Shown: positions 34,687 to 64,000 of the stretch, one piece after another
How positions within the stretch are numbered: position 1 is the first letter of the stretch
Layout of the letters: each line of letters begins with the position of its first letter
Source: an uncultured Phycisphaerales bacterium
GTDB lineage: Bacteria > Planctomycetota > Phycisphaerae > Tepidisphaerales > Tepidisphaeraceae
Reading direction: 5' to 3'
NCBI GenBank assembly: GCA_963758525.1
Contig: CAVWVQ010000003.1
Location: 960,001 to 1,024,000, forward strand
Length of the DNA: 64,000 nt
Made by a program: the position numbers and the translations under genes
The notes under the pieces: generated by a model
Databases searched by the model: none
What the model was told of the DNA's origin: nothing
The model's input: the letters and a program-made list of their open reading frames with translations, nothing else

Positions 34687-34745
34687 TGCTTCGTCTGACG
34701 CTTGACATTCAACGCCCTGCGAATAAAAGATATAGGCATTCCGCT

Positions 34746-34819
<74 letters not shown>

Positions 34820-36209: not shown

Positions 36210-36226
36210 TGGATCCCTCGGGACTA

Positions 36227-36703: not shown

Positions 36704-36882
36704 ATGCGGAGCACCGAGAAGCGTTCAAGCAAGCGAACGGCACGAAAACGTGCATATTTTCAAATTCAAGCACTCGAGGCCCGACTGATGCTTTCCGTCG
36801 CGGCCCACTCGGCGGTCACTGCGGCGATACGAACTTCACCACCAGCACCTCGGGGACGCTGAGCCAGACGGTGACGTCATAA
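36704..36882 (+). pseudogene. Internally deleted paralog of the downstream leader/Ig-like surface protein
   Basis: GGAGAGG RBS + MRSTEK...QALEARLMLS leader joined out of frame to a 62-bp 3' end (36821-36882) that matches 39325-39386 at 56/62 positions, including the stop. Confidence 0.8.
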
Positions 36883-36985
36883 ACATCGTGGACTGCGGGC
36901 CACGGATTGAACTCAGATCGGTCGGCATGCACGCATTCATGGTCGCACTTGGGAACCACGGATGCATCAGACAGGAGCTCCAGCC

Positions 36986-39386: not shown

Positions 39387-39395
39387 TGTGAGACC

Positions 39396-40531: not shown

Positions 40532-41673
40532 ATGAGGCAGACGCAAATCCGCCGAAGCTGCTGTTCGTTATATCCAACGACTTCGGGGAACTGTCCGGCG
40601 CGCTCTACTTCACACTGGGGGGAACGTTCGATGTGACGTTGGCGTTGCCGCCTCGTCTCTTTGCCCTGCATGCCGAACATTTGCCGATTGCAGCGTTTCC
40701 GTATCAGACGATTCAGGACGTGCTGGCGCTTGCCGATCGCGATCGGCCTGATGTCGTGCTGCTATTCTCGGGCTATCTATTCGCGGCCAACAACCTATTC
40801 AGCCTCGAAGCATTGCGAATGCTCGTAAGGCAATTCCGCGAAAGGGGCGTTCGCATCGTCACCAGCGATCCCTTTCTGGGGCTGATGGCGTACCCGAACG
40901 CCTCGGTCTTTAGCGATGAGCATCCGAAGAAAGCGCTTCTGCTGGAGCATTTTCGAAGTGTGGCCGAGACGATGCGCGGCATCGTTCATCTGTATCCCGC
41001 CGATGTTCGGACCGCGTTAAGTCATGCCGGCCATTCATTTTTTAACGAACACGTCGTCCTCACGGCCGCGGAACGGGCCGAATTCGAGGCCCGGCTGGGT
41101 CGCCGGTTGTCGCTGCGTCCTGGGAGAAAGCGATGGATGTTTGTGTTGTCTGCCGAGGACTATGGCCTTCAGATCGGGCTTCACGGACGGCAGGCGTTTG
41201 ATGACCTGCTGTTGGGCAAGATACAGGAGACGGCCCGTGCCGGAAGGCAACCGATATTGGTCGCGCCCAAGGTCTGCATAGACTCGGTCGCTCGGGCCGC
41301 CGGGACGGTTGACAGCGCGATCTTTCTCCCTTTCTGCCAATATGACTTGTTCCAAATGCTGGTTCTCGAGGCGGAATACCTTTTCTACTGGAATGTCTTT
41401 TCCTATTCGATTCTGGCACGGGTGGCCAACGGTTTTCCGGTCCTCGTCTTCGATAGCGGACACATCGCGCGCGCCGTGCCGCCGCTGCATCGGCTGGGGC
41501 TGCAAACATACTACCTCAACGCGCCGATCCCATATGTTGAGCCGGCGCGTGAACTGGACGAGCGGGCGCTTGCCGCGCTGGCGGATGCGCAGAAGTGTCC
41601 ATTGGCACAATCGATCGCAGCACTTCGCAAGCTGCCGGCTCCCGCGCAGGTGATTCGGGAGATTCTGATCTGA
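40528..41673 (+). CDS. Hypothetical protein, possibly GT-B-like fold
   Basis: 381-aa ORF translationally coupled on both sides (ATGA, TGATG); N-terminal KLLFVIS strand, DRPDVVLLFSG, GFPVLVF. Confidence 0.75.
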   Translation: MNEADANPPKLLFVISNDFGELSGALYFTLGGTFDVTLALPPRLFALHAEHLPIAAFPYQTIQDVLALADRDRPDVVLLFSGYLFAANNLFSLEALRMLVRQFRERGVRIVTSDPFLGLMAYPNASVFSDEHPKKALLLEHFRSVAETMRGIVHLYPADVRTALSHAGHSFFNEHVVLTAAERAEFEARLGRRLSLRPGRKRWMFVLSAEDYGLQIGLHGRQAFDDLLLGKIQETARAGRQPILVAPKVCIDSVARAAGTVDSAIFLPFCQYDLFQMLVLEAEYLFYWNVFSYSILARVANGFPVLVFDSGHIARAVPPLHRLGLQTYYLNAPIPYVEPARELDERALAALADAQKCPLAQSIAALRKLPAPAQVIREILI

Positions 41674-42260
41674 TGCGTATCAAAATTCAGGTTGGCTCTT
41701 TGGAGCTGCTGCAATTTTCCTTGAAGGATACGCGGGAGTTGTATTGCGTCCGCAACCATGATTCAGTGCGCCGGTACATGTCGAACCCCGAGCCAATCCC
41801 GTACAAGTCGCACGCCCGATGGGTAAAAGCACAACTACTCTGCAACAGGAACTTTCTGCTGTTCCTTGTGCGAACAAGGCCTCAAGAGCGTGCCGTCGGC
41901 CTGACCCAACTGCGGATCGAGGGCGACACCGCCGAGATCGGGGTGATGTTTCGCGAAGCGTTCCGGCACCAGATGGCCGCCTATATCTCGACGGTGGCGA
42001 TGTTGCACCTGGCATTCGAACATTTGCAGCTGCGATGGATTGTCAGCTACGTCATCCCCTCGCATGGTGCGGCGATACGCTTTAACAAGAGCTTCGGCGC
42101 ATGGGAAGAAGAGTCTGATATTCCTGGGATGGTCAAGGTTCGCCTGAGCAAAGATCGATGCATACAAAACGAGAATTTCCGACGAGTTTTCGACCGAGTG
42201 AAGCATCGACTGCACGTAGGTACGGCCGACATCGCGAGTGCGGGCCTGGTACAGGCATAG
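41673..42260 (+). CDS. GNAT N-acetyltransferase (PseH/RimJ-like)
   Basis: VRNHDSVRRYM...I...SHARW, AEIGVMF, AFEHLQL, AAIRFNKSFG. Confidence 0.75.
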   Translation: MRIKIQVGSLELLQFSLKDTRELYCVRNHDSVRRYMSNPEPIPYKSHARWVKAQLLCNRNFLLFLVRTRPQERAVGLTQLRIEGDTAEIGVMFREAFRHQMAAYISTVAMLHLAFEHLQLRWIVSYVIPSHGAAIRFNKSFGAWEEESDIPGMVKVRLSKDRCIQNENFRRVFDRVKHRLHVGTADIASAGLVQA

Positions 42261-42331
42261 ACGAGAATTTTTGATCTGACACAGCGTCCGGGGCGATGCT
42301 GCGTCTACCTGAATCGGTTTGGATACGCCTC

Positions 42332-43441
42332 ATGAAGGTTTTCATTTTAACGCTAGGCACGAGAGGAGACCTGGAAACATTTCTGATTCTTGGGCGAGAA
42401 CTGAGACGCAGAGGCCACCGGGTTCTGATCGGGACGTCGTCATTTTATTCCGAGCGGATTGCCGCTTCGCGATTGGAATGGCTGCAAATTGGTAATGGAA
42501 CTGCGGAACAGATGCAGGCCGTTCTGCGTTCCATGGCGGTTCTGGACCACCCGAAGCGGCGAACCGAGACATTCATCCAGCAATGGGTCGCGCCGCAACT
42601 GAGGCAATCGATCCGGACGATTCAGCTCTACGCGGTTAACGCCGACTATTTCATCAGCAATTTGAAGATGCACGTGCCACGCAACACAGAAGTGGTTCCC
42701 GGCGCGTTCGTTACCTACGACGTACCGGAATCACTGCAGGATCTTGCGAAGCATGGCAGCCAGCGGCATGGGGGGCGGATTATTGACCTCGTCGCCATGA
42801 GCAAGCCGCTGATCGATCGCTCAAACGCCTGGGACGTCAGCTATCAGTTCACTGGGTTCTGGCTCGACGATCAGCCCCTGACGTGGATTCCTTCGGAACC
42901 GCTCTTGCGATTTCTTTCAGAGGGGTCGCCACCGGTCGTTTTTACTCTTGGCTCCATGGCGACTCTCGAAGTCAGCGGCTTGCCAGACACGGTGATCGAG
43001 ACGCTGCGTGTCGCAGGCGGACGCGGCGTCATTCTCGGCAATTTGGCGGGAGAAAAGCGAGGTTTCGCGTTCGGCAACACCATCTATTTTGAAGGAGAAA
43101 TTCCCTACCAGTGGCTCTTCCCGAAGGCTTGCGCCGTCGTCCACCATGGCGGAGTCGGAACCGTTGCAGCGGCGCTGCGCGCGGGTGTGCCTTCCGTGCT
43201 GCTGCCTCAGATTTCGGCACAGCAATATCTGGCTCGAGTATTGCTCGACGCCGGACTGGCGACAGGAGTCTTCGAGACTCGAGCATTGGACGCAAAGAAG
43301 CTGGGGGCATCAATCCGATTGGCGGTCACCGAAACGAAATACCAGGAGACCGCCAAAGCATGGCAGGCGGAGATCGTGCGGGATTGCGGCGTGCGCTCCG
43401 CCGCGGATCTGATCGAGGAGCATTGGAAGCAACTTCGGTAA
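42332..43441 (+). CDS. GT1-family glycosyltransferase (sterol/glycolipid/natural-product type)
   Basis: LGTRGD, LRRRGHRV, PPVVFTLGSM, PYQWLFPK..AVVHHGGVGTVAAALRAGVPSVLLP. Confidence 0.9.
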   Translation: MKVFILTLGTRGDLETFLILGRELRRRGHRVLIGTSSFYSERIAASRLEWLQIGNGTAEQMQAVLRSMAVLDHPKRRTETFIQQWVAPQLRQSIRTIQLYAVNADYFISNLKMHVPRNTEVVPGAFVTYDVPESLQDLAKHGSQRHGGRIIDLVAMSKPLIDRSNAWDVSYQFTGFWLDDQPLTWIPSEPLLRFLSEGSPPVVFTLGSMATLEVSGLPDTVIETLRVAGGRGVILGNLAGEKRGFAFGNTIYFEGEIPYQWLFPKACAVVHHGGVGTVAAALRAGVPSVLLPQISAQQYLARVLLDAGLATGVFETRALDAKKLGASIRLAVTETKYQETAKAWQAEIVRDCGVRSAADLIEEHWKQLR

Positions 43442-43753: not shown

Positions 43754-46700
43754 ATGGGGCGCAGAAACAAGGCGGCCAAAAAAGGCCCAACCCGTAAAAA
43801 GCAGCCCACGACATCTTTGGGAGGCGACGCATTCAGGCGACGCCGGTTCATTGTTGAGCCTCTGGAGGATCGGTTTCTGTTGAGCGGGAGTCACGATCCG
43901 GCTCTTACAGCGGCGATCCAGGGCGCGCTCTCCACCAGCGATGCAACCGGATTGTCCGCTTGGGCGCACCGGCTTACCGACCCGACTGTTCTGGGTCAGA
44001 ACCTTCCCATCATCGGCTCCGGGCTCGAGACGGCCGTGGACCCGCAGGCGCAGCTGAACACAGTCCTCTCAGGGATCAGCGGCTCATATACCACGCTGAC
44101 CGATTTGCAGGCTGCGTTGCAGGCGACGCCGGGCATTACCGTATCCGCGGTCCGCAACAACGCCAACGATTTGGAATTGGATCTGGGCATCACCAGCACG
44201 GGCACCGCAACAGTGCCGATTGACGCGTCGCTAGGCGCCAACTTCAACGCGACAGGCTCACTGGTCGTAGCGACCTCGCTCCACTTCCAATTCACCATTG
44301 GCGCTTATTACGACACCACTGCCAGCACCGCGGTGGCATACGTGGTGGCGAATAATGACAATCTCTCCCTCAGCTTTAACGCCACCTCGGCCAGTCTTGG
44401 AGGCACTGCCCAGCTCGGGTTTGTCAACCTGCAAGTCTCACAGGCATCGGTGAATTTTTCTCCGCAATTCACTTTCACCCTGCAGCAGCAGGATGCCATC
44501 AACGGTTCGGATCGCGTGTCATTCGATGCGTTGAACGCGGATTCGCTCGGCACGTTGATGACCACTACCTTGAGTCAGTCCGCGCCTGCCACCCTTACGG
44601 CCAGCGTCAGCACTTCGTTGGCGCCGACGGCCAAGCAGATCACGCTGACGTGGGCCGATGTTACCGACGCATCGACTGTGACATCGTCCGCTACCACCGA
44701 TCCAACGCTGGCGGCGCTCAATATCCTGTCGGGCATCAGCCCGACCGCGTTCTCCTCGGGCTTGGATCAGGCAGTCGCCGTTCTCGACGCGGCTGCCACC
44801 GACAATATGACCGCCAATGTGCTGCAGACCAGCCTGCCGATTGTCGGCCAGTCATTGTCCAGCCTGGTGAATTTCACGACTTTCTATCAAACCTATCTGA
44901 CGAAGTTCACGGACTCGGTCACCAATACCACTACCAACGTCACTACGAATACTTTCAATAGCGATTCCCAGTTGTTGACGCTGCTGCAGGGCATACCGAA
45001 TGTCGGGACGGGAAACGTGAGTGAGGCCGTTTCTGGGTCACGGTTGGTGTACACCCTGACTCTCCCCGAGACTGTCACGGTCACCGAACCGCTTTCGCTT
45101 AATGTAGGTTCGGCGTTGAATCTCAACGTTGCCGGGACGGTGAACGTCAGTGTTGCGACCACCACCCAGTTCTCATTTGGCGTCGACGCCGGCACGGGAA
45201 CTTTCTTCATCGCGGCTCCGACCAAGCCGGTATTTCAGGCCACGGTTACCGCTTCCACAAGTCTGACGGCGGCGGCTTCACTGGGCTTCCTCTCGGTGAA
45301 TGTGACCGACGGCACGGTTTCGGCGACGGTGCAGGGGAGCATCTCGTTGACCGACCCCGCCACGGATAGTCCCGCAAGTCCGGGAATCATCACCAGTTCC
45401 GAGCTTGCCTCGGCGAACTTCTCGACGCTGATCGGCGTCGGGCTGAGCGGCTCGGCCTCCGCATCGTTGCCACTGAGCGTTGGCGCAGGTGCTGTCGGGG
45501 GGATCTCCCCCGGCACTCTGGCGATCAGCTGGCCGGACGTAACCAGCCCGTCGACTTTCACCGTCGACACATCGGGAATTTCGCAATTTCTGGATTTCAA
45601 TCAATTGTCTGCGTCTTCGATCCTCACTTATCTCGATGCGCTGCCCAACGTGCTCTCCCAACTCGGGGGCACCTCCGGATTGGGCCATTCGATTCCGGTC
45701 ATCGGCTCGAGCCTCGGATCTGCCATCGATTTCGGGAGCAAGCTGACCACAGCTCTGAGCGGATTGTCATCGGCCACCAGTATCCAGGACCTGGTGACGC
45801 AGCTTCAGAGCGCGCTGCCTGGCGGGTCGACGGTGACTTTTGATCCGGCTACAGACCAGTTGGATTTCACCCTTGCACTGACCGATTCGTATACGGCGAA
45901 CAGCCCCGATTCCGCCGCGTGGTCCATCGACGAATCCCTGTTGAGCGGCGCATTGGGCTTTCATGCATCCGGCACCGCGCCGCTGACGGGTTCGATCGGT
46001 CTGCGGTTCGAAGCCGGCGTGCAACTTTCGCCGGATCTGCTGAGCGACGGTACTTCGACCGCTTCGACCACCGTCGATCCCCTCAGCCAGGTGTATGTCT
46101 ACACGGGCAGCAGCACCGATCCGACCGTTGGAAGCAGTCTCTCGGCGAGCCTCTCCGTGCAGGGAACCATCAATGCGTCGGCGACGCTGGCTTTTGCCTC
46201 GATCGGAGTGAGCGCCGGTACGCTCACGATCGCGGGCACGAACAGTTCAGGGGTCGTCACTCCCGGCACCCCCGCCACCGCCAGCCTCGTGATCGGGAGC
46301 GGCGCGGCGGGCAGCAAGCAGACGCTGGCGAACATCCTGGCAAATCCGTCGTCGCTGTTCGGCGGTTTTAATTTCAACGGCGGCGCGATGGTGACGCTGC
46401 CATTGACGGGCATTCCTCGCTCCACGAATACGCCTGACGTAGCCCCGGAAATTGACGTGAGTTGGCCGAACATCACGACGGTTCCGGTGCCCAGCACGAT
46501 GGGTCTCGACTCCACCAATCTGAACCCGCTGGCGAATTTCGACGCCAGCGACTTCACGAGCGGGCTGACCTCCGTGATCGGCTTGATCACCCAGTGGGGC
46601 AACCTCCCGCTGCTCAATCAAAATATCCCGCTGATCAACGAGCCGATCAGCAAAATACTCTCGTATGCAAACGACGTGGTGAGCGTATTCAACTCGATTT

Positions 46701-49700
46701 CGTCCTCGGTCAGCTCGGGAAGCCCCTCCTCAGCCTCGGCGTTGAATACGCTGATCATGAACGCGGTGCCGGGAGACATCACACAAGGTCCTTCTTTTAA
46801 CCTGGCAAACAACGTCCTTGATTACGATTTGAACTACAGCGCAAACGTTTCCACTTCTGTTCCGTTCAACCTGGGCCTTAGCATCTTAAATGTCAATGCG
46901 AACGTGACTGCGTCGGCCGCGGTGAACGTAAAACTCGAATTTGGCTTCGACGCGGCCGACGGGTTCTACATTGTCGGCGGCTCTGATACGGCTCATCCGC
47001 AGTTGTCGGTGACGGGCACGCTGGCGCTGAACGTCGCCCAGGCGGGTCTGGTGCTCGGGCCGCTTCAGGCCGGCGTTGCCAATGGCACGGGCAACATTTC
47101 ATTGGGGTTTGCCGTCAATCTCGTTCCTCCCAGCAGCGGAAACGGAAGCAAGATTTCCGCGACGCAACTGTTGTCCGGCGCCGGGTCCATCCTGAGTCCA
47201 ACGGTGAGCGGCAGCGGAGCGCTGAACCTGCCCCTTGGCGTGCGTCTGGGCTCCGGGGGGCCCGGGGTGCTGGCAACCTTCAGCGCCAGTTGGGATCCCA
47301 ATCGTGATAATCCGCTGGAGTTCGGCCCGAACAACTCCACCGATCCGACCGACGGGTTTGGAAACGTGACATTTGATTTGGGAGAAGTTGTCGACGAGAT
47401 CGTTGGGCCGGTGCTGAACTTCATCAAGGAGTATAATCCCATTCCGCAGAGCGTGCTCGACGCGCTCAACACGCCGCTCCCATTTCCCCTGGAAGGCATG
47501 ACTGCCGGGGATGTTCTCGGCGACTACATCGACAACCCGGGCGTTAAGCTTCTGCTTCAGATAGAACAAGCCATCGGCCTGGTGGAGCAGGTGGCCAGTC
47601 TCGCTTATACGCCGATCGACCTCAGCTCGTATTTGCCGGGATCGGGCTCGAGCCAGGCCGCGGCGCAGCACAACAGCGCGGCTGCCCAATCCTCTTCCCA
47701 AACCCCCGATGATGCATCTGGTGACCCCGAGAATGGGGCCGTGCAGAACATTATCGACGAACTTAAAAACGATTTCTATCTCGACATTCCTCTGCTGGAC
47801 CATCCGACGTCCACAATCATTGCCTTGTTCACGGGCCAAAACGTCAACCTCGTTGATTTCGATCCTGGTCACGTGGAGATCAGCGAGACGTATTCAACGC
47901 CCAAGGTCTCAGTCCCGCTCTTCAGCGTTGGATTCGCCAGTGCCGAGGCGTTCGCACAGATCTCGTTCACCGCGTCGCTTTTCGCCAACATCGACATCGG
48001 CCTGGACACGCGCGGACTGCTGGGCCACTACATCTCCAGCGGCGTCTATTCCACAAGTCAGCCATCCAACGTTCTGATGGGCTTCTACATCAGTGACGCT
48101 GACACCGGCTCAGCCAACGACGGGAATTATCAGGCCGGGATCAAACTCGCGGCGGATATCATATTCGGTGGCGAGATCAGCATCCTCGGCTATGACGCGG
48201 TTGATCTCTATGGCGGCGTGGGTCCCTATGGAATCGTCGGCATTCACTTTAACGACATTTATTACAACAGCGCCGGCCAGCCTGGGGGAGTCGCTAATTA
48301 CAAGGGCAATCCGGCCGGCGACGGGAAAGTCTATTTCGACGAACTCGACTGGATTGCCGACAACTATGGTCCATTGTGCGCCGTCATGCCGGGGGGCGAA
48401 CTGGGCTTGAGCGTCACCCTCGGTGGCGATGTGAATCTGCTTCTCTGGTCGATCAGCTTCACCATTTACCAGCACGACTTCACGCTTGCGACGTTCGACT
48501 TCCCTTGCATGCTGAACCTCACCGACCTGGGCAGCATTCAAGGCCATTCGTTCGTCATGAACAATAACACTGCCACCGACGGGCGCAAAATTGAGGTCAA
48601 CATTGCCGATGACCCGAACAACAACAACGTGCCGGCGCTTCATATCAACGAAACCAACGGTAACGTCTATGAAACTGACTATATAGACCTCTCGACCCTG
48701 CAGGCCGCGGGCGTGGACACGTTAGTCTTGAAGGGCTCCGACGGCGACGACAACTTCAAGATCGATCCCGACATCACCACGACGGGACCCTTCCGACATC
48801 TGCAGGTGCTCACCGGCAAGGGAAACGATCAGGTCGACCTCTCGAATTTCCAGAACGGCACGAACGGAACAACCAACAACTCCAACCTCACCGACGTGAT
48901 CATCACGGGCGGAACCGGCGGAACGTCAGACAACGACACCATCACCGGCAATTACGCGCCCGACACGATATTTGCCGGCGACGGAGCAAATCTGATCATT
49001 CCCGGCACCGGCAACGACGAGGTCGTCGAAAGCAGCGGGGATGACACGATCAACGCCGGCGGCGGCAACGATACTGTGGTGGGCGGCACCGGCGCGAACG
49101 TGTTGATCAACACCGGCAATGGCGCCAATACGATCACCGCCGGCTCGGGCACCAACGCAATCAACGCCGGCGACGGCAACAACGTCATCCACGCCGGCGC
49201 TGGCGACGACCGAATTCAAGTGGGCCAGGGGAACAATCTCATCACTGCCGGCGCGGGACGGGAATCGATCACCGCGGGCAACGGCAACGATACGATTTAT
49301 GCGGACGCCGGCACCAGCTACATCACTGCCGGCAACGGCTCCAACGTGATTACCGCCGGCGCCGGAGCCGACCAGATCCATGTCGGGCAGGGCAACAACA
49401 CTATCAAAGCCGGCGCCGGCTCCGAATCCGTCACCGCGGGCAATGGCAACAACACGATTACCGCAGATGTCGGCGCCAGCAACATCCTGGCCGGCAATGG
49501 GAACAACGTCATTACCGCCGGCGCTGGAGCCGACCAGATTCAGGTCGGTCAGGGGAACAACCTGATCAACGCGGGGACCGGCACTGATACCGTCATCAGC
49601 GGCAACGGCAACAACGTGATTTACGGAGACACGGGCGGGAGCGACATCTTTGCCGGGACCGGCAATAACTTCATCTATGAAGACGGCGGCGCTAACGTAA

Positions 49701-52700
49701 TTTATGGTCATCCAATTGGCGTCCCCAGCGGGAATGACTACATCCAGATAGGGCCAGGCAGCACCACTCTGCACGGGGGCGAGGGCGACAACCTCCTCGT
49801 CGAAACTTCCGATTCCAGCCAGACGCTCACGGACACCACTCTCACCACCGGCCAGACCACCCTCACCTACGACGGCATCGATCGAATCATCATCAATGGC
49901 GGCCCCGAAAACGATTCATTCGATGTCAGCGGGTATTCCGCCGGAAACGTGACGATCAACGGAGGGGGCGGTTCTGACACGATAGCCTCCACCGACGACA
50001 CGAATTTCACGCTCACCAACACCACCCTCACTCGCGCCACCGGCGCGAATTTCTCGCTCAACGGCATCACCAATGCCGTGCTCAACAGCGAAACCACGGA
50101 CAACACGTTTGACGTGACCCATTTCACTGGAAATGCGACGCTCACCGGCGGCGGCGGTGTGGATACGGTCGTCTCCTCCATCCCGGCGAATTACACGCTC
50201 ACCGACTCGTCCCTCACGAGTTCCGCCGGCGGAAAATTTTCGCTGGCCGGCATTTCCCACGCCGTGCTGACCGGCGGATCTGGAAGCGATCAGATCAATA
50301 CCAGTGGTTTCTCCGGGAACGTCACGCTTCTGGGCGCTGCCGGAACTGACACGATCACCAGGGGAACCGGCGATACCAACATCGCCGGGACGACCGCCCC
50401 CAATCCACCGGCCACGCTCCTGACCGGATTTGCCGACGGTGGTCCGTGGAATGAGATGGGCGATTCCGCCTCCGGTCTGGGCGTCAGCGAAAGCACCAGC
50501 GCGGCGATCGAGCCATCGTCGGTCTATGCAGCCGCCGGTCCGTACGTTGCCTGGGCTGACAATCGGAGCGGTGTTTATCAGATTTATGTCGCACAGTACG
50601 TGAGCGGCGCCTGGGTCGAACTTGCCGGCAGCGCCCATGGCGGGGGCATCAGCAATTCGGCGTTCGGAGCCCGTCGACCGAGTATTACCCTCAATTCGTC
50701 GGGCGAACCGATCGTCGCCTGGACGCAGCAGAAGAGTGGATCGAGCGTCGGCTCGATCGACGTCGCTCAATTCAACCCTTCCGGCGCTGGCGCGTGGGTC
50801 GCGTTGCCCACGCCATCCGGAACCTCGGCCGACCAGGCCCACGTTGTCCAAACCAGCGCCGGTCCCGTGGTCGCCTGGCAGGATTCAAGCGGCGCAACCA
50901 CGAATATCTATGTCGCGCGGTATAGCGGTTCGGCGTGGGCCGCGCTGCGCCGGCGCCACCAGCGGAAGCGGCGTTTCAGCCTCCTCATCCAATGTCGCTG
51001 GAATTGCTCTTGCCACAGATGGAACCAATGTGGCGCTGGCGTGGACGCAGACTGTCAGCGGGGTTCAGCAAATTTATGCCAAGCAGTATTCCGGCACGAC
51101 CTGGAGCGCCCTGGGCGGATCGGCCTCGGGGAATGGAATCAGCAACACGACGGCGAGCAGCCAAAGCCCGACCCTGGCCTACAGCGGGGGAAGCCTTTAT
51201 GTCGCCTGGCAAGCCTCCAACGCCGGCGCGTCGGTGATCTATGCCGACAAGTACAACGGCACAAATTGGGTAGCTGCCGGAACGGGTGCAAACAGCGGTG
51301 CGGGGCTGTCGAATAGCGGCGGCGGTTCGACGCAGCCGGTTTTGGCCGCGGGAGGCAGCAATCTCTATCTGCTCTGGACCGACAACCGAATTACCAGCGG
51401 CGCCGGAAATACCACTGCTGTATACGCCCTGCAGTGGAATGGGACGCAGTTCGTCGAACAACTGCCGGGGGAGGCAACCGGATTGGGCATCAGCCCAACC
51501 GCCAGTGCACCGGTAACTCCGTCGCTGTCCGTCAGCCCTGCCGGCAATCCATTCGTCGCGTGGGGCGACACGATGAAAGGTTCACCGCAGATCGCCGCCC
51601 GCTTGAATACCGCCGCGGTCGGCACCGTTTACTATGTCAACGATGCCAGTCAGATCGGCGACGCCACCGCAACTGCCGCCGGCAGTTCTGCGAACAACGG
51701 AAAGACGCCCGCCGCGCCCGCCCTTTCGATCGCTCAGATACTCTCTGCCTATACGCTCAAATCCGGCGATGTGATTGTCGTTGACGCCGGCAATTACGCC
51801 GCGCCCGTGACCATCAACATGGCGGGCGTCACCGTCATCGCAGCCCGGGGCGCCACGGCCAATTTCCAGGGGCTCTTCTCGGTCACTTCGGCAAACAACG
51901 TTGTTTTGCAGGGTCTGATCTTTTCCGGCGGCTTGAGTGTTTCTGCCAGCTCGAATGTCTCAATCATCGGCAACCGTTTCTATGGCGGCGGATTCACCCT
52001 CACCGGCGGAAGCGGTTCGCACATTGCCGGCAACCTCATGCAGGTTCTATCCGGGGAGTCGGGCAGCGGCCTGACGCTCGCGGGAGGCGCCGATTCCACC
52101 GACATCGAATTCAACACGATCACCGGCGGCGCCAACGGCATTTCCGTGGCGGCCGCAACGAATTTGCTTATCCGCGGGAACACCATTTCAGGCGTTTCCA
52201 CCGGAATCTCGCTGGCATCCGCAACCGGCGGTACCATCTCCGGAAACGACATCTCTTCGGCCGGCACCGCTCTCAACATCGCCGCCGCGTTCACCGGATC
52301 GATCGACAGCAACGAAATCCATGACAGCGCGGTCGGTGTCAACTATGCCGCCTCGGCGCCGCTCAACGGCAATCGGATTCGCAATAATGCCACCGGGATC
52401 AACTCCACCGTTGCAGGAACCGTTGCTGGCCTGGGCTTCGTCGCCAGCACCGGCCTGGACGCCGCTTTGGCTCTGACGCCCAATCAGATCTTCGGCAATG
52501 TCACTGGCGTAGCGCTAATCGGGCAAATGCAAAATCAGCACGTGTTCGCCAATACCACGGGCGTTTCGGGATCGGGCATCCTCGGGGTGCTGACCTTGAA
52601 TACCGCCAACGTCATCGAAGCCAACACGACCGGCGTTATCTTCAACGGGCCGGTCCAGTTCAATCGTATCGACCGGAACGGTACCGGGATCGTCGCACAG

Positions 52701-55700
52701 AGCAATCAACAGATTGATCACAACCTCTTCTATCGCAATACCACTGTCGCGATTTCGCTCGTCGGCGTCTCAAACGTAAGCATCGTCAACAACACCTTCT
52801 ATTCTCCGCTGGGTGACAACATCGACGTTTCCGGCGGCTCAAGCGACATCGAGATTCTCAACAATATTCTTTGGGCGCAGAGCGGCTACGACCTGAATGT
52901 CGCCGATGACAGCCACCTCGGATTTTTCAGCGATTACAATGACCTGTATTCCACCGGCGCCGGCAAGCTTGTCCACTACTATCAGGATTTCACCGACATC
53001 CTCGACTGGCAGGATGACGTCAACAAGTTTGATCTGCACTCGATTGGCGCGACGATTGTAAATCCCACCGCGGCCCAGCCGCAGTTCGCTGATCTGGCCG
53101 TTGACAACTACAATATCAATGCGCTGACTGGCGGGCTTCGATCGACCAGTCCCACAGTCGATGCCGGCTCGCCGATTGTCGACGACGGCGTGCCACTCGA
53201 TCGAACCAATCTTCTGTCCAACCCCGGCTTTGAGAGCGGCACCGCCAGTTGGACAATTAACAGTACGGGCGGTATCGGCGTATCGAACCCCACGCCCTTT
53301 GCCGGCATTAATGACTTTGCCTCCAACGGCAGCGCCACCACGTTCGCGCAGCAGACCATCGATCTGCTCGCGGCTGGGTATACCAGCACCCAATTGGCCA
53401 GCATTCAAGATGACGACGTGGTCTTCGGCGGGCGTATCCGCTGGAACAGCAATGTCGCCGGCGACGTCGGCAAGATTCAGGTCACATTCCTGAACAGCAG
53501 CAGCAGCCAGATCGGCACGCCGCTGATTGCCTCAGCGACAAATACTGTCGACCGGTGGGAACTGGTCGGCCTGCGCCAGGCAATCCCCGCGGGAACTCGA
53601 TACATCCAATATCGATTCGAAACCGATCGCTCGTCCGGCTCCAACAACAGCGCGTTCGACGGCGCTTTCATGAATGTCCTTGACAGTGGGGTCGGGGTGG
53701 GACAAGGCGCTTATGGAAATACCACGACAGAGGATGCCCAGGAGGTGGCGTCCACCGCGCCGCGAATCGCCCTGCGGTTCCCTGACCTCTACACCAATTG
53801 GGATCTGTCCGCGCCGCACACCATCCTCTGGGATACCTATAACAATGACGCGGCATCGCCCATCCGAATCGACGTCTATCAGGACACCACCAGCGGATCC
53901 ATGCTTTTGGCCAACGTCACTCCGTCAGCGCCGGATATCGGACAATATTCCTGGATCCCGCAGAACAGCGGGCTGACCGCCGGCACGACGAACCTGCGCA
54001 TACAGGTTTCACTTGTATCCAACTCAGCCGTCTACGACCGAAGCACCGAAGTCTTCGCCATCCCCCAAAGCGGCACGACTTATTATGTCAACGATGCCAG
54101 CACCAGCGGTGACGTTTACACCACCGCCGTCGGTTCCAACCGAAACACCGGCAAACTCCCCACCGCGCCGCTCCCGCTTCTGTCAACGCTCCTGCGAACC
54201 TATGGCCTGGGGCCGAGCAACGTCGTCGATATCGATACGGGTACCTACAACGACTTCAATCCGATTGTCTTCGATGCCGCCGACGATGCGGGCGTAACAA
54301 TCACCGGCCCAACCAGCGCCAGTCACGTCGCATCGCTCAGCAGGGCCTATACCGGATCGGCCGGCACCGTCATCGACGTCAACGGCGCAGCGTCAATCAG
54401 CGTCTCCCATCTGACCCTGGTGGGTTCGCAGCGCGGCGTATGGGTTCATAACGGTGCGATCCGGTTCAACGGCGCGTATCTCACCACCTCCAACAACACC
54501 CTTGAAGGAATTCGCCTCGAATCGGACGCGACCGGGTCCACCCTGCAGAACCTTACCGTCTCCGGGAGCGGCGCCGGCGTCAGTAATTCGAACTCTGACG
54601 GGATTTACGTTGCCGCTCCCGGCGTTAGCGTCAACAACAGTCTTTCCTTCAACAACACCGGCGACGGAATCGACGTTGTGATCAGCACCACCTCGCCCAC
54701 GACCATCAGCAACAACACGGTGTATGGCAACAGCCAAAGCGGCATTTTCGCCAGCAATAGCTCCGCTACGCTCCTGACGATCGGCAATAATCTTGTCTAC
54801 AGCAACGGAAACTATGGAATTGCTGCTTCGAATGACGTGCTCGTCACTGGAAATGCCGTCTATGGTCAGTCCAACTCCAGCGCTGCCGGGATCTATATTT
54901 ATAATGACGCTAATGCAACCGGGAACGTCGTGTATCTGAACTACCGCGGCATCGTCGAGGGCAACGCCAGCGGCGCCCTGATCTCCGATAACCGCGTCTA
55001 CGCCAACTCGTCTATTGGCATCCTCTCGCAGAATGACACGGTGAGCGGAAACGTTGTTTATTCCAACGCGATCGGCATCTACGCCGGCTACTACTACGGC
55101 GGCGGCGCCGTGGAAAACAACCTTGACTACGCCAACAGCGCGGCTGCTCTGCAGATCACCAACAATTACGCCAGCTCCACCGGCGTTCAGGTGCTGAGCA
55201 ACACCTTCTACCAAACCGCTGGCGACGCCGTCGACGTGCTGGCCGGCGCCAACAGCGTCACCGTCCAGAACAACATCCTGCAGGTCAGCGCCGGCTACGA
55301 TCTCAACGTCGATCCCTCCAGCCAGGTCGGATTTGTCAGCGATTACAACGACTTCTACACAACCGGCGCCGGACAAGTGGGATACTGGCAGGGCGTGGCG
55401 CGGGCGTTGTTCGGCGACTGGCAGAACGCCTCCTTCACCGATCAAAATAGCTTGTCGGCCAACCCTCTGTTCGTGAAGCCGGCGGGCGCAAACCTGAAGC
55501 TCGGATATGTCGGCGGCGTTGACTACGGCTCCGATGACGATTTCCATCTGCAAAGCACCGCCGGCAGTCTGCACGGCGGGAGCCTCGCCCCGATACTGAG
55601 CGGCACGACCGGCCTGCCGATCGCCGCCACGGGGGCGCGGACCGCCGACTCCGCTGAATCGCCGGGCATCGACCGCGGCGCGACAAATTCTGCCTATTCC

Positions 55701-58700
55701 AGCGAACCGTCGCCCAACGGCAGTTTCATCAATCTGGGCTTCGAAGGAGATACCGCCCAGGCCTCGCTCAGCCCCGCGCAGTACGTCTCGCTCGTCACTC
55801 CCGATGGCGGCGAAACCTGGCCCGAGGGGCAGACCTTCACCATCCGCTGGCGCAGTGAGTCGACCGGCACATACAACATCGATCTGATGCAGGTCGGCAA
55901 CTCCACGCCAGTTCTCTCCATCGCCAAAAACGTGACCACCACAACCGACGAGGGCACCTTTGCCTGGGCGATTCCGACTACTGGTCTTACGCCTGCCAGC
56001 AACTATCTCGTTCGCGTTACCAAGGCCAGCAACAGTCTCACCGCTACCAGCATCCAGCCGTTTACGATCGGCGCGGTACAACACAATTATTACATTAACG
56101 ACAACTCGACTCTCGGCGATCAATACACCACCGCCGTCGGCAATAATGCAAACAGCGGATTGGACCCCGCTCATCCCAAGGCTTCCCTTCAAGCGCTCCT
56201 GCAGGCTTACAGCCTCGGCGCGGGCAACACGATCTACGTCGACACTGGCGTCTATGGTCTCACGTCAAACGTCGTGTTGTCCGCGACGAATAGTGGCGTA
56301 CACATCGTTGGGGCAACTACCAATGCTTCAGAGAGCGCCGGCTACAAGAGTTCCGTGCTGTCGAGCAGCCCGCTGGCGTACTACCGTCTGGGGGATGCGT
56401 CAGGGACGACGGCGGCGGATGCCTCGGGGCACAATCTCAAGGGAACGTATTCCTCTTCGGGCGTAACGCTGGGCAAGGCCGGGGTGCTGCCGACGGATCC
56501 GACGACGGCAGCGGCGTTTGATGGTTCGGGCGGCTCGGTTGCGCTGCCCTCGGGGTTTGCCAACCTGACCGGCGGGTTCAGCTTCGACGCCTGGATCTAT
56601 CCCACGTCCAGCGCCGGCAACCAGCAGATCTTCCAGTTGAGCAACGGGAACGGGCAGTCGGCCGGCTCCAGCGATCTGCACCTCAGTTATTACGGGGACA
56701 CGTACTACTACGGCAACACGTTGTACCTCACGCTCTATCAGGACGGGAGCAACCACCAGATCAGCGTGGGCAACGCCCTGACGCTGAACACCTGGCAGCA
56801 CGTGGCCTTCACGATCGACGCCTCGGGCAACGCCGTGATGTATGTCAACGGGCTGGCGGTCGCCGGCGGAGCGATGGCCCCGCTTGACAATCTCCCGCGC
56901 ACCCAGAACAGCCTGGCCTCGGGAACCGACGGGATTCCCTTCGCCGGGGAGATGCAGGAGGCGGCGTTGTACGGTTCGGCCCTCTCGGCCACGCAGCTGC
57001 GCGCCCATTACGACATCGCCACCGCCAAGGGAACGCTGCTGGACCGGGGCAACGCCTCGGCGGGCAGCTACGGCATCGAGCTGCAGAATGCCAGTAACGT
57101 CACGCTCGATCACCTGAACATCACCGGCGCGTACGACGCGGTGCATACCACCAGTTCGTCGCTGGCCGATGGCTCGGCGGGCCTGACGCTGACCAACTCG
57201 ACGCTCTTCGCCAACGCCGACGCCGGCCTGAACGTGGATCAGTATTCCACCGGGAGCACGCTGGGGACCGACACGGCGTACGGCCTGCCGGGCGGACCGA
57301 CCACCGCCGACGATCAGACTTACGGCTTCTACATCCAGGGCCAGGGCGCCGCCGTCAGCAGCAGCACCGCCTACGCCAGCAACACCTACGGCTTCTATGT
57401 CACCGGCGACGGCTCGACGCTGACCGGCAACACTGCCTATAACGACGCCAATGCGGGGATCTACCTCAGCGGCTCAGGCTCCTCGGCCACCGGCAATACC
57501 GTCCGCGGCAATGGCTACGGCATCCAAACCGACAACGGCGGAGCCCAGACCCTCACCGTCAGCGGCAACACCGTCTATAACAACGTCACCACCGGCATTC
57601 AGGGCAACAATAACGTTCTGATCACCGGCAATACCGTCTACGGCCAGAGCGGCGTCAACGCCAGCGGCATCTCCCTCACCAGCGGCGCCAAAGCCCTCTC
57701 CAACGTCGTCTACCTCAACTACAACGGCATCGTCGAAGCCAACGACAGCGGCGGCCTGATCCAGGGCAACCGGGTCTACGCCAACTCCAACGCCGGCATC
57801 TACTCGCAGAACGACACGGTGAATGCCAACACCGTCTATTCCAACGGGATCGGCATCTACGCCGGCTACTACTACGGCGGGGGCGTGGTGGAAAACAACC
57901 TCGACTACGCCAACAGCACCGCCGCCCTGCAGATCAGCGGCAACAGTGGCAATCCAGGGAGTGGCGTGCAGGTGCTGAACAACACCTTCTATCAGATCGT
58001 CGGCGACGCCATCGATGTGCTGGGCGGCGCCAGCAGCACCAACATCCAGAACAACATCCTGCAGGTCAACGCCGGATACGACCTCAACGTCGATCCCTCC
58101 AGCCAGGTTGGATTCACCAGCGACTACAACGATCTGTTCACGAGCGGTTCAGGCCAGGTGGCGCGGTGGCAGGGGACGGCGTATGCCACGCTCGCCGGCT
58201 GGTTCTATGCGGCCAACCACGACGGCGACAGCCTGAGCCTCGATCCGTTATTCGTCAAACCTGCCGGGAATGACGGGCTGCTGGGGTATGTCAACAACGC
58301 CGATGACGGGCAGGACGACAACTTCCATCTGCAAAGCAGTTCGCCGGCCATCGACGAGGGGAATCCCAACAGCTACTGGCTGAGCGAACCGATTCCCTCC
58401 GGCGGGCGGGTCAATCTGGGTTACGACGGGGGCACCTCCGCGGCCGCCGTCAGCGCTTCCCAGACTCTGCAGGTGGTCTCGCCCGACGGCCCGGCCAAGC
58501 TGCTGGCGGGACAGACCTACACGATCAACTGGCGTTCCAGCGGACTGCTCAAGACCAATACCGTCGCCCTGATCAACGCCGGCGGCGGAACCATCGACGG
58601 CGGGACCGCGGGCGTGTGGCTGGGCAATCAGTTCCTGACCAGTGCTCCCAACACAACCAATACCGGCTCGTTCACCACGGCGGTTGATACCAGCGGCGTG

Positions 58701-61700
58701 ACCAACCCCGCCCCGCAGGGCGTCTACCAGAACTACATTTACGCCAACGGCAGCTATGGCAGCAGCAACGACTCCCTCTCCTGGTCGCTGCCGGTGCCCA
58801 ACGGGACGTACACGATCCGCCTGCACTTTGCCGACCCCTACGCCACCGCCGCCAACCAGCGGGTCTTTGACGTGCAACTGCAGGGGGCGACGGTCAAGAG
58901 GGGCTATGACATCTACGCCGCCGCCGGCGCCGCCGACAAGGCGGCCACGCTTTCCTACACCGTTACCGCCAGCGGAGGGACGGGAATCAACCTCTCCCTG
59001 GTGGGGGACGCTTCAAACCAAAACTGGGGGCCGCTCATCTCCGGGATCGAGCTGAGCGCCGCCAATGCCGCCGGCGGCGTCACCAGCCCCAAGGTCAATC
59101 TCCAGTACTCGGGCAACGGCGGAAGCAGCTGGTCGACGATCGCCAGCAATCTGACCATGGACCGCTTCGGCCGCGGAAGCTACGCCTGGACAATTCCCAC
59201 GGCCATCGCTTCGGGCAATTACCTCATCCGCGTGGTCTCCACCGATTATCCGACGATCAGCGGAACTTCCCTCACTCCCCTGCAGATCGCCGCCGCGAGC
59301 CACAGCTATTACGTCAATGACAACTCGACTCTGGGCGATCAATACACCACCGCCGTCGGCAATAATGCCAACGACGGCAAGACCCCCGCCACCCCCATGG
59401 CCAGCCTCGCCGCCCTCATCAGCGCCTACCACCCCGGCGCCGGCGACACGATTTACGTTGACACCGGCGTCTACAACTTCTCGTCGAACTTCATCCTGAC
59501 CGCCCAGGACAGCGGCGTGCATATCGTGGGCGCGACGATCAGCGCTTCGGAAAGCGCCGCCTACAAGAGTTCGGTGCTGTCGAGCAGCCCGCTGGCGTAC
59601 TACCGTCTGGGGGATGCGTCAGGGACGACGGCGGCGGATGCCTCGGGGCACAATCTCAAGGGAACGTATTCCTCTTCGGGCGTAACGCTGGGCAAGGCCG
59701 GGGTGCTGCCGACGGATCCGACGACGGCAGCGGCGTTTGATGGTTCGGGCGGCTCGGTTGCGCTGCCCTCGGGGTTTGCCAACCTGACCGGCGGGTTCAG
59801 CTTCGACGCATGGATCTATCCCACGTCCAGCGCCGGCAACCAGCAGATCTTCCAGTTGAGCAACGGGAACGGGCAGTCGGCCGGCTCCAGCGATCTGCAC
59901 CTCAGTTATTACGGGGACACGTACTACTACGGCAACCAGTTGTATCTCACGCTCTATCAGGACGGGAGCAACCACCAGATCAGCGTGGGCAACGCCCTGA
60001 CGCTGAACACCTGGCAGCACGTGGCCTTCACGATCGACGCCTCGGGCAACGCCGTGATGTATGTCAACGGGCTGGCGGTCGCCGGCGGAGCGATGGCCCC
60101 GCTTGACAATCTCCCGCGCACCCAGAACAGCCTGGCCTCGGGAACCGACGGGATTCCCTTCGCCGGGGAGATGCAGGAGGCGGCGTTGTACGGTTCGGCC
60201 CTCTCGGCCACGCAGCTGCGCGCCCATTACGACATCGCCACCGCCAAGGGAACGCTGCTGGACCGGGGCAACGCCTCGGCGGGCAGCTACGGCATCGAGC
60301 TGCAGAATGCCAGTAACGTCACGCTCGATCACCTGAACATCACCGGCGCGTACGACGCGGTGCATACCACCAGTTCGTCGCTGGCCGATGGCTCGGCGGG
60401 CCTGACGCTGACCAACTCGACGCTCTTCGCCAACGCCGACGCCGGCCTGAACGTGGATCAGTATTCCACCGGGAGCACGCTGGGGACCGACACGGCGTAC
60501 GGCCTGCCGGGCGGACCGACCACCGCCGACGATCAGACTTACGGCTTCTACATCCAGGGCCAGGGCGCCGCCGTCAGCAGCAGCACCGCCTACGCCAGCA
60601 ACACCTACGGCTTCTATGTCACCGGCGACGGCTCGACGCTGACCGGCAACACTGCCTATAACGACGCCAATGCGGGGATCTACCTCAGCGGCTCAGGCTC
60701 CTCGGCCACCGGCAATACCGTCCGCGGCAATGGCTACGGCATCCAAACCGACAACGGCGGAGCCCAGACCCTCACCGTCAGCGGCAACACCGTCTATAAC
60801 AACGTCACCACCGGCATTCAGGGCAACAATAACGTTCTGATCACCGGCAATACCGTCTACGGCCAGAGCGGCGTCAACGCCAGCGGCATCTCCCTCACCA
60901 GCGGCGCCAAAGCCCTCTCCAACGTCGTCTACCTCAACTACAACGGCATCGTCGAAGCCAACGACAGCGGCGGCCTGATCCAGGGCAACCGGGTCTACGC
61001 CAACTCCAACGCCGGCATCTACTCGCAGAACGACACGGTGAATGCCAACACCGTCTATTCCAACGGGATCGGCATCTACGCCGGCTACTACTACGGCGGG
61101 GGCGTGGTGGAAAACAACCTCGACTACGCCAACAGCACCGCCGCCCTGCAGATCAGCGGCAACAGTGGCAATCCAGGGAGTGGCGTGCAGGTGCTGAACA
61201 ACACCTTCTATCAGATCGTCGGCGATGCCATCGATGTGCTGGGCGGCGCCAGCAGCACCAACATCCAGAACAACATCCTGCAGGTCAACGCCGGATACGA
61301 CCTCAACGTCGATCCCTCCAGCCAGGTTGGATTCACCAGCGACTACAACGACCTGTTCACGAGCGGTTCAGGCCAGGTGGCGCGGTGGCAGGGGACGGCG
61401 TATGCCACGCTCGCCGGCTGGTTCTATGCGGCCAACCACGACGGCGACAGCCTGAGCCTCGATCCGTTATTCGTCAAACCTGCCGGGAATGACGGGCTGC
61501 TGGGGTATGTCAACAACGCCGATGACGGGCAGGACGACAACTTCCATCTGCAAAGCAGTTCGCCGGCCATCGACGAGGGGAATCCCAACAGCTACTGGCT
61601 GAGCGAACCGATTCCCTCCGGCGGGCGGGTCAATCTGGGTTACGACGGGGGCACCTCCGCGGCCGCCGTCAGCGCTTCCCAGACTCTGCAGGTGGTCTCG

Positions 61701-64000
61701 CCCGACGGCCCGGCCAAGCTGCTGGCGGGACAGACCTACACGATCAACTGGCGTTCCAGCGGACTGCTCAAGACCAATACCGTCGCCCTGATCAACGCCG
61801 GCGGCGGAACCATCGACGGCGGGACCGCGGGCGTGTGGCTGGGCAATCAGTTCCTGACCAGTGCTCCCAACACAACCAATACCGGCTCGTTCACCACGGC
61901 GGTTGATACCAGCGGCGTGACCAACCCCGCCCCGCAGGGCGTCTACCAGAACTACATTTACGCCAACGGCAGCTATGGCAGCAGCAACGACTCCCTCTCC
62001 TGGTCGCTGCCGGTGCCCAATGGGACGTACACGATCCGCCTGCACTTTGCCGAACCGAGCGCCACCGCCGCCAACCAGCGGGTCTTTGACGTGCAACTGC
62101 AGGGGGCGACGGTCAAGAGCGGCTATGACATCTACGCCGCCGCCGGCGCCGCCGGCAAGGCGGCCACGCTTTCCTACACCGTTACCGCCAGCGGAGGGAC
62201 GGGAATCAACCTCTCCCTGGTGGGGGACGCTTCAAACCAAAACTGGGGGCCGCTCATCTCCGGGATCGAGCTGAGCGCCGCCAATGCCGCCGGCGGCGTC
62301 ACCAGCCCCAAGGTCAATCTCCAGTACTCGGGCAACGGCGGAAGCAGCTGGTCGACGATCGCCAGCAATCTGACCATGGACCGCTTCGGCCGCGGAAGCT
62401 ACGCCTGGACAATTCCCACGGCCATCGCTTCGGGCAATTACCTCATCCGCGTGGTCTCCACCGATTATCCGACGATCAGCGGAACTTCCCTCACTCCCCT
62501 GCAGATCGCCGCCGCGAGCCACAGCTATTACGTCAATGACAACTCGACTCTGGGCGATCAATACACCACCGCCGTCGGCAATAATGCCAACGACGGCAAG
62601 ACCCCCGCCACCCCCATGGCCAGCCTCGCCGCCCTCATCAGCGCCTACCACCCCGGCGCCGGCGACACGATTTACGTTGACACCGGCGTCTACAACTTCT
62701 CGTCGAACTTCATCCTGACCGCCCAGGACAGCGGCGTGCATATCGTGGGCGCGACGATCAGCGCTTCGGAAAGCGCCGCCTACAAGAGTTCGGTTCTGTC
62801 GAGCAGCCCGCTGGCGTACTACCGTCTGGGGGATGCGTCAGGGACGACGGCGGCGGATGCCTCGGGGCACAATCTCAAGGGAACGTATTCCTCTTCGGGC
62901 GTAACGCTGGGCAAGGCCGGGGTGCTGCCGACGGATCCGACGACGGCAGCGGCGTTTGATGGTTCGGGCGGCTCGGTTGCGCTGCCCTCGGGGTTTGCCA
63001 ACCTGACCGGCGGGTTCAGCTTCGACGCCTGGATCTATCCCACGTCCAGCGCCGGCAACCAGCAGATCTTCCAGTTGAGCAACGGGAACGGGCAGTCGGC
63101 CGGCTCCAGCGATCTGCACCTCAGTTATTACGGGGACACGTACTACTACGGCAACACGTTGTACCTCACGCTCTATCAGGACGGGAGCAACCACCAGATC
63201 AGCGTGGGCAACGCCCTGACGCTGAACACCTGGCAGCACGTGGCCTTCACGATCGACGCCTCGGGCAACGCCGTGATGTATGTCAACGGGCTGGCGGTCG
63301 CCGGCGGAGCGATGGCCCCGCTTGACAATCTCCCGCGCACCCAGAACAGCCTGGCCTCGGGAACCGACGGGATTCCCTTCGCCGGGGAGATGCAGGAGGC
63401 GGCGTTGTACGGTTCGGCCCTCTCGGCCACGCAGCTGCGCGCCCATTACGACATCGCCACCGCCAAGGGAACGCTGCTGGACCGGGGCAACGCCTCGGCG
63501 GGCAGCTACGGCATCGAGCTGCAGAATGCCAGTAACGTCACGCTCGATCACCTGAACATCACCGGCGCGTACGACGCGGTGCATACCACCAGTTCGTCGC
63601 TGGCCGATGGCTCGGCGGGCCTGACGCTGACCAACTCGACGCTCTTCGCCAACGCCGACGCCGGCCTGAACGTGGATCAGTATTCCACCGGGAGCACGCT
63701 GGGGACCGACACGGCGTACGGCCTGCCGGGCGGACCGACCACCGCCGACGATCAGACTTACGGCTTCTACATCCAGGGCCAGGGCGCCGCCGTCAGCAGC
63801 AGCACCGCCTACGCCAGCAACACCTACGGCTTCTATGTCACCGGCGACGGCTCGACGCTGACCGGCAACACTGCCTATAACGACGCCAATGCGGGGATCT
63901 ACCTCAGCGGCTCAGGCTCCTCGGCCACCGGCAATACCGTCCGCGGCAATGGCTACGGCATCCAAACCGACAACGGCGGAGCCCAGACCCTCACCGTCAG
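43754..64000 (+). CDS. Giant adhesin-like surface protein (at least ~6,700 aa, 3'-truncated): planctomycete leader, RTX-like repeats, propeller-like repeats, beta-helix units, FBA-like, LamG and malectin domains (apparent frameshift at 50948)
   Basis: EPLEDRFLLS leader; ORF 43754 reads sensibly to WAAL, then continues from 50949 (AGATSGSGVS...). The same frame holds at spot checks 53220, 54900, 56343 and 63960, and the ORF track lists no stop-terminated ORF in it. Confidence 0.88.
48930..49800 (+). repeat. RTX-like nonapeptide repeats with a 162-bp (54-aa) super-period
   Basis: AGxGx(N/D)xIx units; the GQGNN block recurs near 49223, 49385 and 49547. Confidence 0.8.
56343..64000 (+). repeat. 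Near-identical 3,219-bp intragenic tandem repeat (two full copies plus a partial third)
   Basis: Copies start at 56343, 59562 and 62781; shadow ORFs recur at exact 3,219-bp offsets (56381/59600/62819). Confidence 0.97.

Follow-up and report, generated by a model that had tools for sequence, protein, structure and literature searches.

Recent amplification of a 3.2-kb lectin-bearing block in a giant gene of a Tepidisphaeraceae-like bacterium, with copy differences that probably arose as short recombination tracts

We analysed a stretch of 64,000 nucleotides (nt), here called the window, from an uncultured Phycisphaerales bacterium. The source assembly (GCA_963758525.1) comprises 6.47 Mb in 6 contigs, and the window covers positions 960001-1024000 of its 5.04-Mb contig (CAVWVQ010000003.1). 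The window ends inside a giant open reading frame (ORF), annotated in the public record as 6,788 amino acids (aa), in which older diverged units of beta-helix/NosD and immunoglobulin-like (Ig-like) domains are followed by a tandem array of 3.2-kb units. The repeat unit is 3,219 nt long, in frame, and encodes 1,073 aa with LamG, beta-helix, malectin and Ig-like domains. The ORF and the parts of the array are as follows.

50973..64000, forward strand: giant ORF, its frame open from 50622, protein-like from about 50973 and ending at window-equivalent position 71708, 7.7 kb past the window
56066..56342, forward strand: left boundary of the array, within the older unit that precedes it; this Ig-like segment and the end of the repeat unit are 73-74% identical
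56343..59561, forward strand: repeat copy 1 (self-comparison, blastn)
56520..56999, forward strand: LamG domain of copy 1 (Pfam PF13385, 188.5 bits), with those of copies 2 and 3 at +3219 and +6438
58539..59096, forward strand: malectin domain of copy 1, with HFADPY, KRG and ADK (Pfam PF11721, phmmer against PDB, AlphaFold2 model with Foldseek)
59562..62780, forward strand: repeat copy 2, 99.565% identical to copy 1 (blastn), with both divergent patches inside it
61758..62315, forward strand: malectin domain of copy 2, with HFAEPS, KSG and AGK (Pfam PF11721)
62781 to about 64570 (window end 64000), forward strand: repeat copy 3, partial and without a malectin domain, near-identical to about 64430 and decayed by about 64570

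Self-comparison at an offset of 3219 gave 99-100% identity from 56343 onwards, and copy 3 was 99.057% identical over 1,803 nt (blastn). The near-identical tandem units of 1,073 aa reported by a first-pass annotation, made from the sequence without database searches, were thus recovered with a period of 3,219 nt. Aligning all copies past the window upheld the clustering of their differences described below, but left an array of only 2.5 copies, not open-ended, with two malectin domains to compare. In line with this, Pfam recognised three Laminin_G_3 stretches, one per copy (PF13385, cut-off 27.6 bits), but only two malectin stretches (PF11721, 118.2 bits against a cut-off of 23), together with Beta_helix/NosD and Kre9_KNH, the latter an Ig-like domain. 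Searches of the whole 6.47-Mb assembly found neither a further copy of the unit nor another malectin domain (blastn and tblastn, E<=1e-5).

Both edges of the array are graded. At the right edge identity decays over about 140 nt, and a near-identical tract with graded, still homologous flanks is the pattern of a gene conversion array; the same pattern was found in the Ig array further along the gene. The block was probably amplified by unequal recombination between diverged homologous modules, because the left flank shares 74% identity with the unit's final part and the right edge decays gradually.

A protein from another assembly also bears on the structure of the array. This 683-aa protein (P0003), encoded on a 3,214-nt contig, was 98% identical to the copy-1 malectin domain used as query. 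It runs from the end of the beta-helix through malectin and Ig into the next LamG domain and so contains a unit-to-unit junction, providing independent support for the tandem arrangement.

Within the unit, 14 nt distinguish copy 1 from copy 2; seven are silent and seven are replacements, the latter producing five residue changes. All five changes had been listed by the first-pass annotation, which took the other differences to be silent; the remaining seven inside the unit are indeed silent (56354, 56591, 56726, 58007, 58133, 58802 and 58838). An extra replacement (G/A at 56341) lies 2 nt ahead of the unit start, within the decaying left boundary. The residue changes (copy 1 versus copy 2) and the two patches that hold them are listed here.

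56718-9 versus 59937-8, forward strand: T/Q (ACG/CAG) in LamG
58835, forward strand: D/E (GAC/GAA) in malectin
58839-40, forward strand: Y/S (TAC/AGC) in malectin
58901, forward strand: R/S (AGG/AGC) in malectin
58936, forward strand: D/G (GAC/GGC) in malectin
59810..59945, forward strand: patch A of copy 2, in LamG, with 4 nt unlike copies 1 and 3 (2 silent and the T-to-Q dinucleotide)
62021..62155, forward strand: patch C of copy 2, in malectin, with 8 nt unlike copy 1 (2 silent and 6 replacement nt, including 58901)

The differences fall into three patches, at 56591-56726 (LamG, 4 nt), 58007 and 58133 (beta-helix, 2 silent) and 58802-58936 (malectin, 8 nt). Runs of 1,280, 668 and 625 nt between patches are free of differences, compared with 8 differences in 135 nt and 4 in 136 nt within them. 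Six of the 12 mutational events lie in one 150-nt span (p = 0.0009, 100,000 permutations), so the clustering noticed at first pass is statistically secure. Silent changes share in it, with 4 of 7 lying within 150 nt of a replacement (p = 0.044). Some of the changes are also contiguous: five of six adjacent bases differ at 62054-62059 (GAC CCC TAC versus GAA CCG AGC), and three changes fall within 9 nt at 59937-59945.

On these comparisons copy 2 is the odd one at both the LamG and the malectin patch. At the LamG patch this follows from the agreement of copies 1 and 3, which extends to the silent sites 56591 and 56726, with P0003, which has T at the LamG site. At the malectin patch it follows from P0003, which reads DPY...S...D, and from a 222-nt contig of soil origin that matches copy 1 over the patch apart from position 58901, at which it carries the base of copy 2. 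Arg at 58901 is, on the same sequences, private to copy 1. Copy 3 equals copy 2 at 56354 and 58007. The mosaic of copies proposed at first pass is not demonstrated, as there are three copies and no outgroup and the pattern fits changes private to copy 2.

The soil contig came from three public runs of one soil study (6-20% of sampled words, short contigs only), which covered 14, 7 and 7 of 30 bins of copy 1 at a depth of about 2-5. DPY with S at 58901 occurred in two of these runs, X1 and X2, and two X1 contigs were identical to the unique flank of the array (region 50000-56400). None of the contigs placed on that region spanned the frameshift described below. The copy-2 malectin haplotype was not seen among the soil contigs, at a depth too low to speak for its absence. 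Another soil contig carried 8 changes in 59 nt of the beta-helix, with six residues replaced and one change silent. P0153, a member of the 90% cluster of P0003 that is likewise encoded on a 3,214-nt contig, covers the beta-helix and has 10 residue differences within unit aa 348-391, and P0003 itself carries the further replacements A756S, A868T and G92D. Replacement-rich patches are therefore, judging by these variants, not confined to the lectin domains. Among JGI metagenome contigs we found no relatives of the unit; there were 58 pattern matches, all of which failed tblastn.

These variants raise the question of whether the differences belong to one genome at all. Polymorphisms of co-occurring strains could have been placed or polished into successive copies during assembly, leaving copy number or phasing wrong. 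The genome is metagenome-like, with its 6 contigs 90.9% complete and 6.07% contaminated, and other samples do contain different haplotypes of the unit (X1 and X2, and the residue variants of P0003 and P0153). A frameshift that splits the gene upstream, described below, may also be an assembly error. However, the differences are substitutions, some of them multi-base, and not the indels typical of long-read errors. The junction in P0003 means that the tandem structure is real, and the graded homology at the boundaries is what a real duplication should show. We consider an artefact of this kind quite improbable.

We also examined the malectin domain, in which four of the five residue changes lie. 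It has 7,951 relatives at E<=1e-3 among 1.84 billion representatives, and phmmer against PDB chains returned 2jwp (E 7e-6) as well as 2k46, 9ikp and 6s7t_I. An AlphaFold2 model built on an 18-row alignment had a mean local confidence (pLDDT) of 85.3 and a predicted template modelling score (pTM) of 0.84. Foldseek matched it to plant malectin-like ectodomains (6fih_A, ANX2; E 2.5e-11, template modelling (TM) score 0.78) and to malectin itself, the human protein included (9ikp_A and 2k46, each TM 0.67), so that the module has the beta-sandwich fold of the solved structures. In the model, residues 99 and 101 stand at the start of the loop after strand 89-98, residue 121 (the R/S site) is in the middle of a strand, and residue 133 ends a loop before strand 134-144.

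The first-pass annotation had aligned HFA(D/E)P(Y/S) by eye to the FAEVYF loop of eukaryotic malectin. HMMER agrees: LHFADPYATAANQRVFDV aligns with malectin LKFAEVYFAQSQQKVFDV, which places the motif on FAEVYF. Numbering on the full-length human chain 6s7t_I puts the Y/S site at human Tyr131 (Xenopus Tyr116) and the Arg of NQRVFDV at the position of human Lys138. Carbohydrate contacts given in the excerpted list of PMC13335976 are Ser80, Glu102, Tyr104, Tyr131, Lys138 and Asp201 for human malectin and Tyr67, Glu87, Tyr89, Tyr116, Phe117 and Asp186 for the Xenopus protein. One of the four malectin changes, Y/S, is thus on a listed contact, whilst D/E falls on the Glu of FAEVYF, which that excerpted list does not include. 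The earlier claim that the loop carries sugar-contacting residues stands for the tyrosine but not, on this list, for the acidic residue.

The contact equivalents as a whole are mixed. Tyr104 is present as Tyr, Tyr131 as Tyr in copy 1 and Ser in copy 2, and Lys138 as Arg, but Glu102 is replaced by Tyr and Phe117 by Ala in both copies. The pocket is therefore no copy of the animal one. The aligned stretch leaves out the equivalents of S80/Y67 and D201/D186. In 352 domains of the family, the D/E column is nearly invariant in its acidity (E 312, D 35), and the Lys138-equivalent column has R in 347. The Y/S column is more varied (Y 144, F 59, S 20; entropy at the 69th percentile), and the closest relatives have T, V, T, Y, S and N there. 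Both a profile alignment and HMMER placed the Tyr on this family Y/F column; MAFFT put the column into an insertion. The R/S and D/G columns are of ordinary variability (75th and 62nd percentile).

Synonymous and non-synonymous sites were counted by the Nei-Gojobori method and compared with a Fisher test. The whole unit (S 803, N 2416, Sd 7, Nd 7) gave a pN/pS of 0.33 (p = 0.055), and the malectin domain (S 146, N 418, Sd 2, Nd 5) gave 0.87 (p = 1). No excess of replacement over silent change (dN/dS above 1) was found in the unit or in the malectin domain, a comparison of two malectin sequences with very low power. An adaptive reading of the residue changes is not supported.

Recombination has left marks elsewhere in the gene. 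Past the window the giant ORF contains about 20 Big_3_5 Ig-like domains, and this Ig array holds two recent duplicates. In L034, our numbering past the window, L034:4850-5930 corresponds to window-equivalent 68850-69930. At an offset of 1743, about 1.08 kb is duplicated (window-equivalent about 68850-69930 and 70593-71673; L034:4850-5930 and 6593-7673) with 2 differences, both replacements (Q/E and A/V). At an offset of 1761, a near-identical core of about 460 nt (L034:2271-2733 and 4032-4494) has 2 differences, S/G and one silent, and flanks that are only 70-80% identical; it is conversion-like, with the marks expected of such a tract. These near-identical tracts and duplicates in the Ig array indicate that intragenic recombination is at work along the whole gene. 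In these recent non-lectin duplicates, 3 of 4 differences are replacements.

Relatives of the unit are distant. Some match was found in 17 of the 41 genomes searched, the window's own included, and the best relative was 45% identical. Two genomes of the same genus gave weak matches only (best E 8.8e-13 and 4.6e-5). Within the family, three genomes have giant ORFs with malectin domains (8,808, 7,349 and 6,618 aa), and the malectin pairs within the first two of these are only 71% and 35% identical. The near-identity seen here is therefore recent and not a habit of the family, and no 3.2-kb amplification of 99.5% identity was found in the relatives searched. Of the homogenised array proposed at first pass, the action of recombination stands, with the 460-nt Ig tract as one trace of it, but the relatives' diverged pairs do not fit an array routinely kept uniform.

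We conclude that the array is real and that its differences are probably short recombination tracts in copy 2, and not the outcome of selection on sugar pockets. On the best reading, a giant gene of a Tepidisphaeraceae relative, coding for a glycan-binding protein of LEPR-XLL type, recently underwent intragenic amplification. After amplification, copy 2 would have acquired, from a diverged allele outside the assembly, two tracts at least some 135 nt long. Malectin module 2 is thereby without the platform tyrosine and would bind sugar differently or more weakly; the change from Tyr to Ser thus probably makes the two malectin modules functionally unequal. The product would be a glycan-binding protein, secreted or on the cell surface, of a soil planctomycete resembling Tepidisphaeraceae.

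Several points weigh against the two imported tracts. No donor for either patch was found in the assembly (blastn and tblastn of the unit; 10-16-mers over the variant clusters), and import is therefore inferred; the assembly itself is only 90.9% complete, with 6% contamination. The multi-base changes, with five of six adjacent bases altered and two dinucleotide codon changes, would be unusual even for a donor diverged by 6%. All five residue changes between the assembly's copies fall in LamG or malectin, which make up about 34% of the unit. A change on a known contact position together with one in a nearly invariant acidic column is also the pattern expected of pocket tuning, and with two malectin sequences the tests are nearly powerless, leaving selection unproven.

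The positions of these residue changes favour the reading of the first-pass annotation, in which gene conversion keeps the array uniform whilst selection diversifies the sugar pockets, giving a tunable multivalent lectin array. The Y/S site varies among the closest relatives as a specificity position would, and the malectin domain has a higher pN/pS than the full unit. Against this, there are only two malectin domains to tune and hence one pairwise comparison, whose pN/pS is not above 1. Silent changes lie within the same patches as the replacements, and the R/S and D/G changes are in ordinary columns, the former in mid-strand. Patches rich in replacements are seen in the beta-helix and Ig parts of the gene as well, and the malectin pairs of relatives are not homogenised. 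We could not uphold the diversification of pockets and regard the tunable array as unlikely.

The tight multi-base clusters in ligand-binding domains (62054-62059 and 59937-59945) could also suggest that the binding loops are hypermutated in a targeted way, whether by a diversity-generating retroelement or by some other templated mechanism. However, blastn and a search with 12-16-mers over the variant clusters found no template repeat in the assembly and no informative second site. The nearest reverse transcriptase (RT) match (RVT_1) is about 145 kb away, and 4 of the 6 RT matches are identical copies. Mixed in type, the changes are not limited to adenine positions, and among those in the patches are silent third-position ones as much as 100 nt apart. 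On the missing template, the distant RT and the mixed change types, a diversity-generating retroelement was rejected, and hypermutation of any templated kind almost certainly does not account for the patches. As a separate observation, four RVT_1 matches have equal scores (154.6-154.7 bits), each in a 466-aa frame (C1:202459, C1:207753, C2:269151 and C3:3034309); our guess is that they are copies of one mobile retroelement.

The recombination tracts favoured here could also be part of something larger. A population-wide pool of diverged 3.2-kb lectin blocks may exist, from which short-tract recombination between strains re-sorts binding-loop variants such as Tyr/Ser into successive modules. 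We consider such a pool clearly unlikely. If it did exist, a planctomycete would bear on one polypeptide a set of malectin modules that differ in glycan specificity and go on being reshuffled.

The giant ORF is preceded by a second ORF, which it overlaps by about 700 nt (50622-51316).

43754..51316, forward strand: upstream ORF of 2,520 aa, with an N-terminal LEPR-XLL motif and RTX calcium-binding repeats
50945..50975, forward strand: approximate frame switch from the upstream ORF to the giant ORF (both translations compared by eye)

The LEPR-XLL motif lies at aa 32-45 of the upstream ORF (NCBIfam NF012209, 18 bits against a cut-off of 17), and its RTX repeats match Pfam HemolysinCabind (E 6e-28). 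When the translations were compared by eye, the last 120 or so aa of the upstream ORF were not protein-like, and the overlapping giant frame carried on its repeat motif from about 50973. Because the giant frame continues this motif where the upstream tail ceases to be protein-like, the two ORFs probably form a single gene of about 9,300 aa, interrupted by a frameshift near 50945-50975. As they stand, motif and array are in separate ORFs, and would be on the same polypeptide only with the frameshift read through. The RTX part of the upstream ORF also contains a 162-nt tandem repeat (49106-49674; 3.1 copies, 74% matches).

A housekeeping gene in the window has its relatives, up to 83% identical, in metagenome-derived genomes of Tepidisphaeraceae and other Phycisphaerae. 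The window also encodes a DUF1559 protein (Pfam match), which we take to be consistent with Planctomycetota. Glycosyltransferase and sugar-nucleotide genes lie on both sides of the giant gene locus. These glycan-synthesis genes, at window 30440-43441 and L034:9395-15703, include an epimerase/dehydratase, a UDP-glucose dehydrogenase, several glycosyltransferases and a PMT-type mannosyltransferase. A GH16 protein is encoded at 24554-25786. Other large proteins of secreted type are encoded nearby, one bearing Big_3_5 domains and another, a TIG/fn3/PKD protein, adjoining an FG-GAP repeat protein (37158-39386 and 8383-12305).

Giant genes are abundant in Planctomycetota and have hardly been studied. 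The gene described here supplies a clean, naturally occurring pair of bacterial malectin modules that are four residues apart, one of those residues being the aromatic sugar-contacting residue of animal malectin. Such a pair could therefore help to show which ligands bacterial malectin domains bind. What speaks for adaptive tuning is too thin to bear weight. Our literature search turned up no description of a bacterial malectin tandem array, although the listings were skimmed and we make no claim that none is in print.

Planctomycetes giant genes have predicted roles in adhesion and carbohydrate binding, according to the Fuerstia paper (PMC5177795). The present gene resembles the LEPR-XLL ('LEPR-8K', NF012209) giant proteins of Planctomycetota in the N-terminal motif on its upstream ORF and in its total length of about 7,000-9,300 aa. 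It shares the carbohydrate-binding and Ig-like content of planctomycetal giant genes, and same-family relatives have malectin ORFs of 6,600-8,800 aa. Unlike those giants, it joins motif and array only through frameshift read-through, and its near-identical amplification did not occur in the relatives searched.

With malectin itself (PF11721; the animal endoplasmic reticulum lectin, PDB 2K46/2KR2 and 9IKP), the repeat shares the LHFAE-x-Y...R-VFDV core and the equivalents of Tyr104, Tyr131 (copy 1 only) and Lys138 (as Arg). It differs in being a bacterial module within a giant multidomain protein, whereas malectin is a small endoplasmic reticulum membrane protein, and in the Glu102 to Tyr and Phe117 to Ala replacements of both copies and the Ser at Tyr131 in copy 2. 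The clustered multi-base changes in a ligand-binding domain recall the targets of diversity-generating retroelements, but the template repeat, nearby RT and adenine specificity of those systems were not found here.

The streptococcal alpha C/Rib and staphylococcal Bap-type surface proteins have near-identical tandem repeats that are kept alike by intragenic recombination, with short units of about 80-130 aa in many copies. The array described here is likewise made of head-to-tail, in-frame, near-identical repeats and lies in a gene with other recombination tracts. By contrast, its unit is 1,073 aa long, spans four domain types and is present in only 2.5 copies. In evolutionary terms the case is ordinary: many large repetitive surface proteins show the same kind of recent intragenic amplification and patchy recombination.

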